A DNA stretch of 42,778 nt from a virus (taxonomy: Duplodnaviria > Heunggongvirae > Uroviricota > Caudoviricetes). The position numbers and the translations under genes are program-made. Below the pieces are notes generated by a model. That model worked only from the letters and a program-made list of their open reading frames with translations. It ran no database searches and was not told the origin of the DNA. How positions within the stretch are numbered: the first letter of the stretch is position 1; each line of letters begins with the position of its first letter. The stretch lies in the IMG/VR virus record IMGVR_UViG_2541047878_000002, positions 1-42,778 of that record; one strand, given 5' to 3'. Shown in pieces: positions 2,686 through 30,107 of the stretch.

Positions 2686-2775
2686 CGCAAAGTCTCCGCA
2701 ATTACACGCAAGAAAAAACCGCCATCAGGCGGCTTGGTGTTCTTTCAGTTCTTCAATTCGAATATTGGTTACGTC

Positions 2776-3087
2776 TTATTCGATGCGCACTCCTGGTATT
2801 TCGCCTTTTGATATTGCGAAGTCATAAATTTGCGCAGCACTATACCCATCTCGCATCCATGAATCTAATGCGCGAATAGCCTCGCTACGCTTTTTATCTT
2901 CTCTCTCATTTTTGATATCAACGAGGACATCAACGCAATTAAGGCAAATGTGGATTTTGTCCTTACATTCGATCATGGCGGCTTTACCATGATTTCCGCC
3001 ACACAGTGAGCATAAATCTTCAGGGTCTGGCTGGTATTTCTGTAACGTTAGATGGTTGAATGTTGAACAGGCCATAATCATCTCCAT
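2776..3087 (-). CDS. Hypothetical Cys-rich early-left protein (CxxC…CxxC, possible zinc ribbon)
   Basis: 103-aa ORF co-oriented with the pL operon; motifs CSLCGG…CLNC. Confidence 0.45.
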   Translation of the reverse strand: MEMIMACSTFNHLTLQKYQPDPEDLCSLCGGNHGKAAMIECKDKIHICLNCVDVLVDIKNEREDKKRSEAIRALDSWMRDGYSAAQIYDFAISKGEIPGVRIE

Positions 3088-24413: not shown

Positions 24414-25325
24414 ATGGACCAAACCACCGACATTCAGGCTTCTGAAGAATTAACCCTGCCTGGCAATCATGCAGCGGCATCTGCTGATGGCTTAGTTGTC
24501 GATAATGCCAACGACAACGCAGGTCAGGAAGAAGGCTTCGAGATTGTCCTGAAAGACGATGAGAAACCAAAACAAGACCCGGCAACTAATGCTGAATTTG
24601 CCCGTCGCCGCATCGAACGCAAACGCCAGCGTGAGCTTGAGCAGCAGATGGAAGCGGTTAAGCGTGGAGAGTTGCCGGAGCACCTGCGGGTGAACCCTGA
24701 GTTACCAAAACAACCAGACCCTAACGATTATCTTTCCGAAGATGCACTGGCTAAGTACGACTATGACCAGAGCCGCGCACTGGCTGCCTTCCAGCAGGCA
24801 AACAGTGAATGGCAGATCAAGGCTATGGACGCACGAAGCCAGGCTGTCGCCGAGCAGGGTCGCAAAACTCAGGAGTTCACCCAGCAATCAGCGCAATACG
24901 TCGAGGCAGCCCGTAAGCACTACGACGCAGCGGAAAAGCTCAATATCCCTGACTATCAGGAGAAAGAGGATGCATTCATGCAACTGGTGCCGCCAGCAGT
25001 CGGTGCCGACATCATGCGCCTCTTCCCGGAGAAATCCGCCGCTCTCATGTATCACCTTGGTGCTAATCCTGAGAAAACACGCCAGTTGCTGGCGATGGAC
25101 GGGCAATCCGCGCTGATTGAACTCACTCGACTGTCAGAACGTTTAACTCTCAAGCCTCGAGCCAAACCTGTTTCAGAAGCCCCGCTACCTGATGAACCCA
25201 TTCATGGACACGCTGTTGCTGCAAATATATCTGCGATTGAAAAGCAGATGGAAGCGGCAGCAAACAAAGGGGATGTAGAGACATACCGCAAGCTCAAGGC
25301 GCAACTGAATAAAGGAATTCGATAA
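24414..25325 (+). CDS. Scaffolding protein, P22 gp8 type
   Basis: 303 aa, close match to recalled P22 gp8 (…[30 protein letters not shown]…[11 protein letters not shown]…). Confidence 0.85.
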
Positions 25326-26620
25326 TGGCATTAAATGAAGGTCAACTGGTCACGTATGCTCTGGATGAAATCATCGAAACCGTCCAGAACCTGACGCCAA
25401 TGGCGTCCAAAGTGACAAAATACACCCCTCCGGCAGAATCCATGCAGCGTTCAAGCAACACCGTGTGGATGCCTGTTGAGCAGGAAGCGCCAACTCAGAC
25501 TGGCTGGGATTTAACTGGCAACGCTACCGGGATTCTGGAACTCTCCGTGAAATGCAACATGGGCGATCCGGATAACGATTTCTTCGAACTTCGTGCAGAT
25601 GACCTGCGTGATGAGCGTTCTTACCGTCGCCGCATCCAGGCATCCGCCAAAAAACTGGCGAATAACATTGAGTCAGCGATTGCCAAACAGGCAACTGAAA
25701 TGGGCTCGCTTGTTGTTCACGATACCCGCGCAATTGGTCCATCTACTGGCCTGTCTGGCTGGGATTTTGTGTCTGATGCAGAGCGCCTGATGTTCTCCCG
25801 TGAGCTAAACCGCGACATGGGCATCAGTTACTTCCTGAACCCTGACGATTACCGCAAAGCAGGCCGCAACCTGGTAGATGGTGACATCTTTGGGCGCGTT
25901 CCTGAAGAAGCGTATCGCAACGGTACTATTCAGCGTCAGATTGCTGGCTTTGATGAAATTCTTCGCTCACCGAAACTTCCGGCAGTTACCAAGTCAACCG
26001 CGACTGGTGTAACTGTTTCTGGTGCGCAGAAGTTTAAGCCGCAGGCATACACCCTTGATACCGATGGTAACAAAGAGAACGTCGACAACCGTGTTGCAAC
26101 GGTGACCGTATCCTCCACCACCGGATTTAAGCGCGGCGACAAAATCAGCTTCACTGGTGTGAAATTCCTGTCTCAGATGGCGAAGAACGTGCTGACTGAT
26201 GATGCTACTTTCTCAATCACCCGCGTGATCGATAGTACTCACATCGAAATCACGCCGAAGCCGATTGCACTGGATGACGCGTCACTGACAAAAGAAGAGA
26301 AGGCTTACGCTAACGTAAACACCTCTCTTGCTGAGACCACTCCGGTAAACGTTCTGAACGTGGCAACAACAACCGCTAACGTGTTCTGGGCTGATGACTC
26401 AATCCGTCTGCTGTCTCAGCCGATCCCGGTAACCCATGAACTGTTTGCTGGCATGAAAACGTCTTCCTTCAGCATTCCTGGTATTGGTGTTAACGGCATC
26501 TTCGCAACGCAGGGTGATATCAACACTCTGTCTGGTAAGTGCCGTATTGCTGTGTGGTATTCAGCATGTGCTGTACGACCAGAGGCAATTGGTGTTGGTC
26601 TGCCTAACCAGACCGCGTGA
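25325..26620 (+). CDS. Major coat protein, P22 gp5 type
   Basis: 431 aa, close match to recalled P22 gp5 (MALNEGQ…VGLPGQTA-like C-terminus). Confidence 0.9.
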
Positions 26621-26663
26621 TAACCAGAGGGAGCTTCTGCTCCCTTTTCTATTGGAGATACCA

Positions 26664-27257
26664 ATGAGCGTAATGATTTTTCAGGCTGGCGGAGATACCA
26701 AAATCTGGGGACGCAAGCTGAAAACGAAAACCGTTGATCCTGATGATGTAGCTGTGCACTTAGCAAATGGCTGGTATAAGCACCCTGACGATGTTCCTGA
26801 TGATCCTCTTGTTGGTGATCACATTAGGAGTGTTGGCGGAGGTGAAACTTCCCCAGTTGATATGGGCGAAGTGTCCGACGGTTATCACACTTTTAACGAG
26901 CTTTACGCTCACCGAGTGCGCCTCTTCTCATCGCTGATGCATGCTTACGCTGAGCTTTCGTGGTGGTCTCGCAAACACAGTGACGGTGAAGAGTGGGATG
27001 GCTGGATCATTGCTGGTATCACCACTCCAGAAGGCGAAATCACTTATCACCTACCTGTTGAAGAAATCGAGTTCCTTCCTGAAGGTACTGAGCTTGAGTT
27101 CGGGAAAGAGTGGGATGGTCATGAAGCAAATGATGTTCTTGGACGACTCCTGAGTTTGCGTCCGGCTATTGCAGAGCCAGAGCCAGAAGAAAAACAGCGT
27201 AAAAAGCCTGGTCGAAAACCTAAGGCGGCAGCAGATGAACCTGACAACGAAGGGTGA
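26664..27257 (+). CDS. Hypothetical acidic protein between coat and gp4 (197 aa)
   Basis: ATG at 26664 with GGAG SD (in-frame internal start of ORF-track entry 26484..27257, which overlaps coat); basic C-terminal tail [11 protein letters not shown]. Confidence 0.5.
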
Positions 27258-27735
27258 TTTAGTCCTTGCGGCATTACGTAAGCTCGGTGTGGCATCAAAT
27301 GCCACGTTAACAGATGTCGAACCGCAGTCTATGGAAGACGGCGTCAACGACCTTGAAATGATGATGGCTGAATGGATTGGCGGTGATGCGTCACCTGGTA
27401 TCAACGTTGGCTACATTTTTGCTGATGCAGATGTTGCTCCGGATCCGGGCGATGAGCACGGTTTATCAAATAACGCTATCAATGCCGTCATTTTCAACCT
27501 TGCCTGCCGCATTGCTCCAGATTATGCGCTGGAAGCGTCTGCAAAACTTATAACCACTGCCAGATACGGGAAAGAGCGACTCGTCAAACTGTCTGCAATG
27601 GATAGGGCAAAAGCCGCTAAATGTAAGTCCGGTTATCCAAACCGTATGCCTGTTGGTAGCGGTAACCAGTTGGCGAAGTGGAACGGTTGGAATTACTTCC
27701 ACCGGAAGGAACCTTGCGATAACGGGAGCGAATAA
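27235..27735 (+). CDS. Head-tail adaptor / head completion protein, P22 gp4 type
   Basis: 166 aa from ATG 27235; …[26 protein letters not shown]… matches recalled gp4. Confidence 0.8.
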
Positions 27736-29154
27736 ATGCCGATTCAGCAACTTCCGCTTATGAAAGGTGTCGGCAAAGACTTTCGAAACGCCGACTATAT
27801 CGACTATCTGCCAGTGAATATGCTGGCTACACCCAAAGAAATCCTCAACAGCAGCGGATATCTTCGCTCATTCCCGGGCATTGCCAAACGTTCCGACGTG
27901 AACGGCGTATCGCGGGGCGTCGAGTACAACATGGCGCAGAATGCTGTTTATCGCGTGTGTGGTGGCAAGCTGTATAAGGGCGAAAGTGAAGTCGGTGATG
28001 TTGCCGGAAGTGGTCGCGTATCAATGGCGCATGGTCGGACATCACAGGCGGTAGGCGTTAATGGTCAACTGGTCGAGTATCGTTATGATGGCACGGTTAA
28101 AACCGTCTCAAACTGGCCTACAGACAGCGGATTCACTCAGTATGAGTTAGGCTCAGTCCGTGACATTACGCGCTTACGTGGGCGTTATGCGTGGTCAAAA
28201 GACGGAACTGATTCATGGTTTATCACTGACCTTGAAGACGAATCGCATCCTGACCGTTACAGCGCACAATATCGCGCAGAATCGCAGCCGGACGGCATCA
28301 TCGGTATCGGCACATGGCGAGACTTCATAGTCTGCTTTGGTTCGTCGACGATTGAATATTTCTCCCTGACTGGTGCAACCACAGTTGGTGCTGCTTTGTA
28401 TGTCGCACAGCCATCACTGATGGTGCAAAAAGGCATCGCCGGGACTTACTGCAAAACGCCATTCGCTGATTCTTATGCGTTCATCAGCAATCCGGCAACG
28501 GGTGCGCCGTCTGTATACATCATCGGCTCCGGTCAGTTATCACCAATCGCCAGCGCGAGCATTGAGAAAATACTACGCTCCTACACTGCTGATGAACTGG
28601 CTGATGGCGTGATGGAATCGTTGCGGTTTGATGCTCATGAGTTGCTGATTATTCACCTGCCGCGCCATGTTCTTGTTTACGACGCATCTTCAAGCGCCAA
28701 TGGTCCGCAATGGTGTGTACTGAAAACAGGCCTGTATGACGATGTGTACCGCGCTATCGACTTCATTTACGAAGGCAATCAGATAACGTGCGGCGATAAG
28801 CTTGAATCGATGACAGGGAAATTGCAGTTCGATATCAGCAGCCAGTACGACAAGCAACAGGAACACCTGCTGTTTACTCCGTTGTTCAAAGCAGATAACG
28901 CCAGAGTTTTCGACCTTGAAGTTGAATCTTCAACTGGCGTTGCGCAGTACGCTGACCGCCTGTTCCTATCGGCAACCACTGACGGCATCAATTACGGACG
29001 TGAGCAGATGATTGAGCAGAATGAACCGTTCGTTTACGACAAACGCGTTTTGTGGAAGAAAGTAGGGCGCATCAGGAAAAATGTCGGCTTCAAATTGCGC
29101 GTTATCACGAAGTCACCTGTAACTCTGTCTGGCTGCCAGATAAGGATTGAGTAA
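27736..29154 (+). CDS. Tail hub protein, P22 gp10 type
   Basis: 472 aa, near-identical to recalled P22 gp10 over most of its length. Confidence 0.85.
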
Positions 29155-30107
29155 TGGCTGATTCGAATCTCAATGAGCCGGTAATCATTCAGGCTACACG
29201 ACTCGACACATCAGTCCTTCCACGCAATATCTTCTCGCAGTCGTATCTGTTGTACGTTATCGCACAGGGTGCTGATGTTGGTAACGTGGCGAACAAGGCC
29301 AACGAAGCAGGGAAGGGGGCTTATGATGCACAGGTGAAGAATGATGAGCAGGATGTCACCCTTGCAGACCATGAATCCAGAATTGCTGCTGCTGAAGCAA
29401 CTCTCGTCAATCATGAACATAGAATCGCAGCAGCGGAAAGCACTCTTGCAGATCATGAAACAAGGATTACTGCTGCCGAAACAGAGCTGGCTGATCACGA
29501 GACGCGAATTGCTGCCAATGAATCTGAGTTAGCAAACCATGATGCGCGAATAACTCAGAATACAACCGATATCAACGCACTTGATACCAGGCTCACAGCG
29601 GCAGAGGGAAGTATTTCGACGCTACAAAGCACAGTTGGTGATCACTCAACAAGAATATCTGCGCTTGAGTATGCCACCACGCGCAAGAAATCAGAGGTTG
29701 TTTACTCAGGAGTATCGGTAACCATTCCAACAGCGCCGACCAACCTTGTTAGCCTGCTGAAAACGCTCACGCCGTCATCCGGGACGTTGGCACCATTCTT
29801 CGATACTGATAACAACAAGATGGTTGTTTTCAACGAGAACAAAACCCTGTTCTTCAAGCTGTCGATTGTCGGGACGTGGCCCAGCGGAACCGCCAACAGG
29901 TCAATGCAGCTAACCTTTTCCGGCTCTGTTCCTGACACACTGGTCAGCAGTCGTAATGCGGCGACAACAACCGATAACATCCTGTTAGCTACGTTTTTCA
30001 GCGTGGATAAAGACGGCTTTCTTGCCACAAATGGCAGTACGTTAACCATTCAGTCGAATGGTGCGGCGTTTACCGCCACAACCATCAAAATCATTGCGGA
30101 GCAGTGA
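29154..30107 (+). CDS. Tail needle, P22 gp26 type, with coiled-coil repeats and extended C-terminal domain
   Basis: 317 aa; gp26-like N-terminus (…[26 protein letters not shown]…), five 14-residue repeats (TLADHE.RIAAAE.), longer C-terminus than the 233-aa P22 gp26. Confidence 0.8.

Follow-up and report, generated by a model that had tools for sequence, protein, structure and literature searches.

What occupies the interval between the coat gene and gene 4 in P22-like phages, and what does its product do? The question is raised by P22-like prophage DNA of 42,778 nucleotides (Caudoviricetes; IMG/VR record IMGVR_UViG_2541047878_000002, analyzed over its full length and hereafter termed the window), in which an open reading frame (ORF) encoding 197 amino acids (aa) lies between these two genes. 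An earlier note, made from the letters of the window, described it as an extra ORF inserted into a P22-type gene order that runs from coat directly to gp4. This description does not hold, as the same slot is filled by orf69 in P22, by gene 6 in Sf6, and by hkbT in HK620. Instead, the slot ORF, as we call it, is a long form of a gene found at this place in every P22-like phage examined; relative to P22, an internal linker and a WDGH domain (Pfam PF25311) are additional. For the WDGH domain, we regard it as plausible, though somewhat short of an even chance, that it neutralizes a host immune pathway; the favored mechanism is the binding or cleavage of a signal derived from a nucleotide.

Architecture of the slot protein

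The slot ORF is a real gene, far beyond a chance reading frame, because its product matches the Pfam WDGH model at 134.8 bits (cut-off 27; model positions 1-97 of 97), aligns over its full length with phrog_3769 (E=3e-101), and has 1385 homologues at E<=1e-3 in a large protein collection. A further match is to phrog_1175 (E=1.7e-14); NCBIfam gave no match, and WDGH was the sole domain found in the Pfam scan of the product. The ORF starts with the ATG at 26664, ends with the TGA at 27255-27257, and is preceded by a GGAG Shine-Dalgarno sequence (SD), all as read in the earlier note. The same note called the product acidic, with a short lysine-rich tail and a Trp/His-rich core, and we indeed find an isoelectric point (pI) of 4.79, 39 Asp and Glu versus 21 Lys and Arg residues, 9 His, 7 Trp, and the tail motif RKKPGRKPK. 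As a gene, it is ordinary: it has been noted in the P22 literature since 1991-2008, the NCBI Prokaryotic Genome Annotation Pipeline (PGAP) already labels it 'WDGH domain-containing protein', and what is new is the allele, the family being known though uncharacterized. Its parts are listed below together with scores from an AlphaFold2 model, which was built on an alignment of 69 homologues and has a mean predicted local distance difference test (pLDDT) score of 78.9.

26664-27257, plus strand: slot ORF, 197 aa, 22.1 kDa, pI 4.8; long form of the P22 orf69/epsilon34 gene 6/L orf186 family
26654-26657, plus strand: SD (GGAG) of the slot ORF, read from the sequence, 6 nt ahead of the ATG
26664-26798, plus strand: N-terminal orf69-type mini-domain, aa 1-45; beta-hairpin and helix with the motif GW..HP; pLDDT 80-90
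26799-26864, plus strand: acidic linker, aa 46-67; predicted disordered, pLDDT <50 at residues 48-64
26865-27158, plus strand: WDGH domain, aa 68-165; PF25311, E=1.3e-39; compact alpha/beta fold, pLDDT ~95
27159-27254, plus strand: disordered tail, aa 166-197; EP repeat, then basic RKKPGRKPK; pLDDT <50, residues 169-197 disordered in the model

In the model, the N-terminal mini-domain consists of two strands (residues 3-14 and 17-24) and a helix (residues 26-34), and protein alignments place G9, G16, G36-W37, and H40-P41 in it, all of which are present in the slot protein. A profile search with this domain retrieved 446 proteins, the best 120 of which are all 44-82 aa long and come from Enterobacterales prophages. 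At the other end of the protein, the basic motif (encoded at 27198-27224) follows the pattern K/R-x-G-R-K-P-K, is succeeded by acidic residues, and aligns with the tails of the P22, L, and APC_JM3.2 proteins. P22 orf69 and the 88-aa gp22 of phage APC_JM3.2 align to residues 1-45 and to the basic tail while skipping the middle, and it is because these proteins match both ends only that we take the slot ORF to be a long form of the same gene.

The middle segment carries the complete WDGH signature (SDGxHT, YxHR, HxDG, YH, and WDGH). Conserved in the slot protein are S71, D72, G73, H75, and T76; Y81, H83, and R84; W100, S102, H105, D107, and G108; Y128 and H129; W150, D151, G152, and H153; and R161. 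The sole deviation from the signature is at position 154, where 83% of WDGH representatives have threonine and the slot protein has glutamate. A second WDGH copy was sought in the window, and none was found.

The WDGH family and a possible role in counter-defence

WDGH is a large family, comprising 3636 clusters at 50% identity (E<=1e-3), and 200 records of phages that differ greatly from one another contain it. These phages include Listeria A511-like myoviruses, large Bacillus phages, a Klebsiella jumbo phage, actinophages, and cyanophages, as well as temperate phages of Streptococcus, Staphylococcus, and Lactococcus; their hosts span Proteobacteria, Firmicutes, Actinobacteria, and Cyanobacteria. 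Conservation of the domain across phyla suggests that its target would be a universal small molecule rather than a host-specific protein. In these other phages, the WDGH gene mostly lies within runs of small early or accessory genes. A Staphylococcus phage, for example, has it between primase/helicase and dUTPase genes, and in Listeria A511 it belongs to the early region.

In Bacillus phage Nate (L004, 3848-5048), the WDGH gene gp134 overlaps the start of gp135, a gene annotated as a NADAR family member. NADAR enzymes act on ADP-ribose adducts, and the adjacency marks a possible functional neighborhood. A Pfam scan of the WDGH neighbors in Nate, A511, and Streptococcus phage IPP39 yielded nothing informative beside this annotated NADAR gene.

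Conservation within the family and its fusion partners were counted across 150 WDGH representatives. Thirty-five positions are at least 80% conserved, including five histidines (H75, H83, H105, H129, and H153 of the slot protein), four aspartates (D72, D107, D151, and D157), and two arginines (R84 and R161); the median representative has 6 His and 4 Trp. This near-invariant His/Asp/Arg constellation points to catalysis or a metal site more than to a passive surface. Searches of PDB sequences with WDGH, by phmmer and by profile, returned nothing meaningful, Foldseek found no solved fold relative (best E 1.2), and BFVD returned only WDGH proteins. In the literature searched, we found no paper naming the domain or PF25311; such matches as came up were noise from optical character recognition.

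The same residues would also suit a nucleic-acid or nucleotide enzyme that works apart from defence, such as a small metal-dependent nuclease or phosphatase, or an RNA-processing factor that serves in late infection. One representative is fused to a DEDD (RNase T-type) exonuclease, and the neighbors of WDGH genes in other phages include dUTPase, primase, and nucleotidyltransferase genes. However, neither in sequence nor in fold does WDGH resemble a known nuclease or phosphatase, and its anti-defence fusion partners outnumber the metabolic ones. We consider an enzyme of this kind unlikely.

The anti-defence partners are Sequestin (PF21825; six cases), the Lar restriction alleviation domain (three cases), a Tad2-like domain (one case), and an Acb2/Tad1 hairpin (one case). 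The remaining partners are singletons, namely YodL, the DEDD exonuclease, DUF551, and zinc ribbons. One protein combines three domains as Tad2-WDGH-Sequestin (P0101) and another as Lar-WDGH-zinc ribbon (P0230), and WDGH is joined to Sequestin in P0077, P0082, P0106, P0133, P0141, and P0211. In the Tad2-WDGH-Sequestin and WDGH-Sequestin proteins, the WDGH domain is 65-73% identical to that of the slot protein. These fusions carry validated sponge domains, whereas the slot protein has the orf69-type N-terminal domain and the basic tail instead. PF21825 itself was found to be a sponge for 3' cyclic ADP-ribose (3'cADPR) via its fusion to Tad2 and Acb4, and sponges joined in one protein were shown to counter several systems simultaneously (Tal et al, bioRxiv 10.1101/2025.07.12.664507). 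By the logic of that discovery, its fusion to anti-defence domains makes WDGH a counter-defence candidate.

The Tad2-WDGH-Sequestin protein (265 aa) is encoded on a Serratia prophage contig (L015, 6001-6798) between a lysis cassette (holins, M15 peptidase, and DUF2570) and the terminase and P22-type portal genes. Known sponge domains are thus found here in a late-operon position. Similar to the slot ORF, this gene belongs to a late operon, and its prophage shares the P22-type portal.

If WDGH serves in counter-defence, the slot protein would be produced from the late operon together with the coat protein, in the period when late-gene products would trigger Thoeris- or CBASS-type systems. The WDGH domain would act in the infected cytoplasm, where it would bind or cleave one of the nucleotide-derived signals on which Thoeris- or CBASS-type immunity relies. 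Apart from this proposal, the slot protein is a dispensable accessory module whose WDGH part has been gained or lost repeatedly, and it does not appear to be a building block of the virion. A stronger version of the proposal, which we put forward only tentatively and rate as rather doubtful, is that WDGH represents an unrecognized counter-defence family with a new fold, working on a nucleotide immune signal either as a His/Asp enzyme or as a sponge.

Similar to Tad1, Tad2, Acb1, Acb2, Acb4, Acb5, Sequestin, and Lockin, WDGH is found in small, widespread phage accessory proteins, and like them it is joined to others of the group in fusions. It differs from all of them in that it shows no sequence or fold similarity to any, is acidic, and lacks a positive pocket. 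The possibility that WDGH is Lockin or Acb5 was rejected on the descriptions of the two: Lockin is a mostly-beta hexamer and absent from INPHARED, and Acb5 has other key residues.

Several points weigh against a counter-defence role. Known sponges use positively charged pockets, whereas WDGH representatives have a median net charge of -7. Expression from a late operon is unusual for counter-defence genes. Only about 11 of the 150 representatives (~7%, as a raw count) have an anti-defence partner, and the argument from fusions is only one of guilt by association. The Pfam scan detected no sponge or nuclease domain in the slot protein, and in the fold and PDB profile searches its model resembled no solved anti-defence protein. 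In addition, most relatives keep the N-terminal domain and the tail but have no WDGH, which implies that the slot gene also does something in its own right, beyond the reach of this account. Neither WDGH nor PF25311 appears in the sponge paper or its supplements (bioRxiv 10.1101/2025.07.12.664507), and we found no experiment tying WDGH to any defence system.

Should the stronger version be correct, more than 3600 clusters, from phages that infect at least four bacterial phyla, would belong to this new kind of enzyme or sponge. The domain would, in P22-like phages, be plugged into the gene 3' of coat and made together with immunity-triggering capsid proteins. The link from an uncharacterized domain to anti-immunity fusions (Sequestin, Tad2, Acb2/Tad1, and Lar) provides a testable lead, and the natural near-isogenic pairs of P22-like phages with and without WDGH, whose flanks are 97-99% identical and whose genetics are tractable, make the hypothesis cheap to test.

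The slot between the coat gene and gene 4

The surroundings of the slot ORF in the window are as follows.

25325-26620, plus strand: coat (major capsid) gene, upstream neighbor; Pfam P22_CoatProtein, E=3e-165
26626-26648, plus strand: post-coat hairpin ('t-coat'), GGGAGC-TTCT-GCTCCC, then TTTT
27235-27735, plus strand: gene 4 (head-tail adaptor), downstream neighbor; Pfam P22_Tail-4, E=1e-58

In every P22-like phage checked, an ORF lies between the post-coat hairpin and gene 4. In the P22 reference record, gene 5 and an annotated stem-loop are followed by orf69 (69 aa), which overlaps gene 4; Sf6 gene 6 and HK620 hkbT, 61 aa each, follow an annotated 't coat' terminator; and the same slot holds orf186 in L and ST64T, gene 6 in epsilon34, and orf54 in ST104. 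The arrangement of the slot ORF, with a hairpin ahead of it and an overlap with gene 4 at its end, matches those of P22, L, Sf6, HK620, APC_JM3.2, and a Klebsiella prophage, and the content of the slot ranges from 61 to ~210 aa. Far from being an empty junction, the slot houses a small conserved gene into which a further domain is optionally inserted. The role of this gene has been stated as unknown (Villafane et al, 2008; PMC2629481), and phage L orf186 is listed with 'detailed function unknown' (PMC8022706).

The long forms from Salmonella phages, epsilon34 gene 6, L/ST64T orf186, and ST104 orf54, share with the slot ORF the position, the three-part architecture, and the overlap with gene 4. 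They are 61% identical to it overall and ~77% identical within the WDGH domain; the homologue of BTP1, in the same slot, is likewise 61% identical. The slot ORF differs from the Salmonella long forms in its E. coli-type coat and gp4 flanks, its longer linker, and its EP repeat, and its DNA is only ~67% identical to theirs. The short forms (P22 orf69, APC_JM3.2 gp22, and those of IME10 and Louie; PHROG 1175) share the N-terminal mini-domain, the basic tail, and the slot, and are without the linker and WDGH; the APC_JM3.2 tail is identical to that of the slot ORF. They have been described as internal deletions (Villafane et al, 2008; PMC2629481). Finally, Sf6 gene 6 and HK620 hkbT resemble the slot ORF in following the t-coat hairpin, overlapping gene 4, and ending in a basic GRK tail, but they comprise 61 aa, contain no WDGH, and are barely alignable in the N-terminal part (22% identity).

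In the record of phage Louie (L002, about 2750-3000), the 82-aa short-form slot ORF (MTHMIFRHGNMKKWKG...PDNEG) is unannotated. The start of gene 4 has been extended instead, and a 45-aa ORF is annotated over the end of the coat gene.

The slot ORF appears to be an integral part of the late transcript and not an autonomous moron, because no promoter-like (sigma-70-like) site was found upstream of it between 26400 and 26664, its G+C content (0.48-0.50) equals that of the flanking genes, and it overlaps gene 4. It has no terminator of its own, and its stop overlaps gene 4, whose frame matches Pfam P22_Tail-4 over residues 2-160. With the gene 4 ATG at 27235, the overlap is 23 nt, as the earlier note had it. 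That note had also suggested a moron carried in the late operon, and this suggestion survives in part: WDGH is dispensable and found in many unrelated phages, whereas the lack of a promoter, the flank-like G+C content, and the embedding in the late operon speak against it. A classical moron was rejected for want of a promoter and of any compositional difference. One may further imagine a lysogenic-conversion moron, expressed from the prophage to the benefit of the host, for example by excluding other phages; prophages of many Enterobacterales carry the gene, and the slot is variable. However, the stretch from the coat stop to the ATG contains no promoter-like site, a terminator-like hairpin stands just upstream, the G+C content is that of the flanks, no PADLOC defence model matches the product, and strictly virulent phages commonly carry WDGH (examples are Listeria A511, Bacillus Tsamsa-like phages, and the Klebsiella jumbo phage), all of which makes such a role very unlikely.

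The hairpin itself has a predicted folding energy of -19.4 kcal/mol (z=-3.2) and was scored as terminator-like. Its position is kept in six other genomes (P22, L, Sf6, HK620, APC_JM3.2, and a Klebsiella prophage); when these hairpins are aligned, the stems show compensatory changes, and an SD and a slot ORF always come next. The equivalent hairpin is annotated as a terminator or stem-loop in the L, Sf6, HK620, and P22 records, and an Rfam scan for structured RNA in the region gave only a chance match (E=0.6). At the other end, the overlap between the slot ORF and gene 4 is the arrangement that would be expected for translational coupling, and the tail-coding DNA contains the ribosome-binding site and start of gene 4.

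These features suggest another explanation, in which the slot ORF is an expression device for gene 4 that restarts translation after the hairpin, hands ribosomes on to the overlapping start of gene 4, and so sets the ratio of coat to gp4, with WDGH as a passenger whose biochemistry is unconnected with immunity. Hairpin, SD, ORF, and overlapping gene 4 start are kept even where the protein differs, as in Sf6 and HK620; the gene 4 SD lies within the sequence coding for the tail; and the slot content varies in length from 61 to ~210 aa. Yet the N-terminal motif (G9, G36, W37, H40, and P41) and the WDGH domain are conserved, and changes are mostly synonymous. This conservation at the protein level argues that the product matters beyond the act of translating it. 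Moreover, P22 orf69 was reported to be not essential (PMC2629481). We think it improbable that gene 4 expression is what the slot ORF is for; this account is compatible with a counter-defence role of WDGH and does not exclude it, and the rival accounts are not all mutually exclusive.

The earlier note also considered a decoration or head-accessory protein, which would suit the position of the gene between coat and gene 4, with both of which it would be co-translated. The slot protein might accordingly decorate or cement the capsid, or complete the head at the gp4 portal vertex, and its AT-hook-like basic tail could touch DNA. A second, unrelated head-gene case is Streptococcus phage IPP39 (L005, 3908-4303), an exception among WDGH phages, in which a 131-aa WDGH protein is encoded within the head-morphogenesis cluster, between the portal gene and an SPP1 gp7-like minor capsid gene. 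Against a virion component, epsilon34 has the long form, yet gels of its virions look like those of P22 apart from gp13, the tailspike, and the 15-kDa Dec band, and the homologue in P22 is reported to have an internal deletion and to be non-essential (PMC2629481). Further, the closest relatives are viable phages although they have no WDGH, most phages have WDGH among their early genes, and no sequence or fold match to any capsid or decoration protein, such as phage L Dec, was found. We rejected the decoration or head-accessory option on the virion gels, the viable relatives, and the missing fold match; the slot protein does not appear to be a major virion protein, and that it is a component of the virion at all seems to us highly improbable. 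Absence from close relatives without a phenotype, which the earlier note had named as evidence against its view, is largely what we see as far as a structural role is concerned.

Mosaicism and maintenance of the WDGH segment

The closest phages to the window in this region are APC_JM3.2, IME10, HZ41, CurroJimenez, Louie, and Dewey, which are ~97% identical over 85% of a 3.5-kb region, in separate pieces. In a blastn comparison with APC_JM3.2, positions 26400-26658 and 27172-27499 of the window align and the part between them does not, which defines the following features.

26659-27171, plus strand: mosaic segment, no alignment to APC_JM3.2; flanks 98-99% identical (blastn)
27174-27185, plus strand: (GAGCCA)2 repeat encoding EPEP; in-frame length polymorphism, right-hand mosaic junction

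APC_JM3.2, IME10, and Louie have the short form without WDGH between flanks that are 97-99% identical to those of the window. Since these closest plaque-forming relatives are without WDGH, this part of the protein appears to be dispensable. Conversely, a P22-like prophage of Klebsiella (P0048) combines an APC-type N-terminal domain with WDGH in the same slot. Two N-domain subtypes thus each occur with and without WDGH, from which we infer that WDGH has been gained or lost at least twice in this slot. Identity to APC_JM3.2 resumes at 27172, within the (GAGCCA)n repeat, and E. coli copies differ by 6-nt indels at 27171-27177; the repeat may be a site of recombination or slippage for the loss or gain of WDGH. 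The window has two repeat units and other E. coli prophage copies one or three, and a long run in APC_JM3.2 is annotated as a repeat_region.

In a set of 5426 complete E. coli genomes, the flanks occur in 217, and 42 have the entire stretch, at 98-99% identity. None of the five E. coli prophage copies that were examined has a disrupted slot ORF. Differences among the E. coli copies amount to seven synonymous and three non-synonymous changes in the folded domains, versus one synonymous and five non-synonymous changes in the linker and tail. Although these numbers are small, the pattern fits a functional, maintained protein.

Within the disordered linker, codons 53 and 55 (26822 and 26826) encode His and Arg in the window copy but Gln and Gly in each of the five E. 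coli relatives examined, and at no other position do all five differ from the window. Pseudogenization in the relatives was considered and rejected: the partial or pseudogene coding sequences (CDSs) reported by PGAP are an annotation artefact, as the DNA is intact in the five copies checked. The PGAP calls on four of the contigs (L010, L016, L017, and L018) are inconsistent with one another, the ORF being given as two partial pseudogenes, a truncated CDS of 133 or 104 aa, a 'hypothetical protein', or a 'WDGH domain-containing protein'.

The tail-needle gene

Further downstream in the window, the gene at the gp26 position (29154-30107) encodes a tail needle of 317 aa, compared with 233 aa calculated from the coordinates of P22 gene 26. 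In the coiled-coil shaft of this protein, a 14-residue unit, LADHETRI(A/T)AAE(T/S)x, is repeated in tandem about five times.

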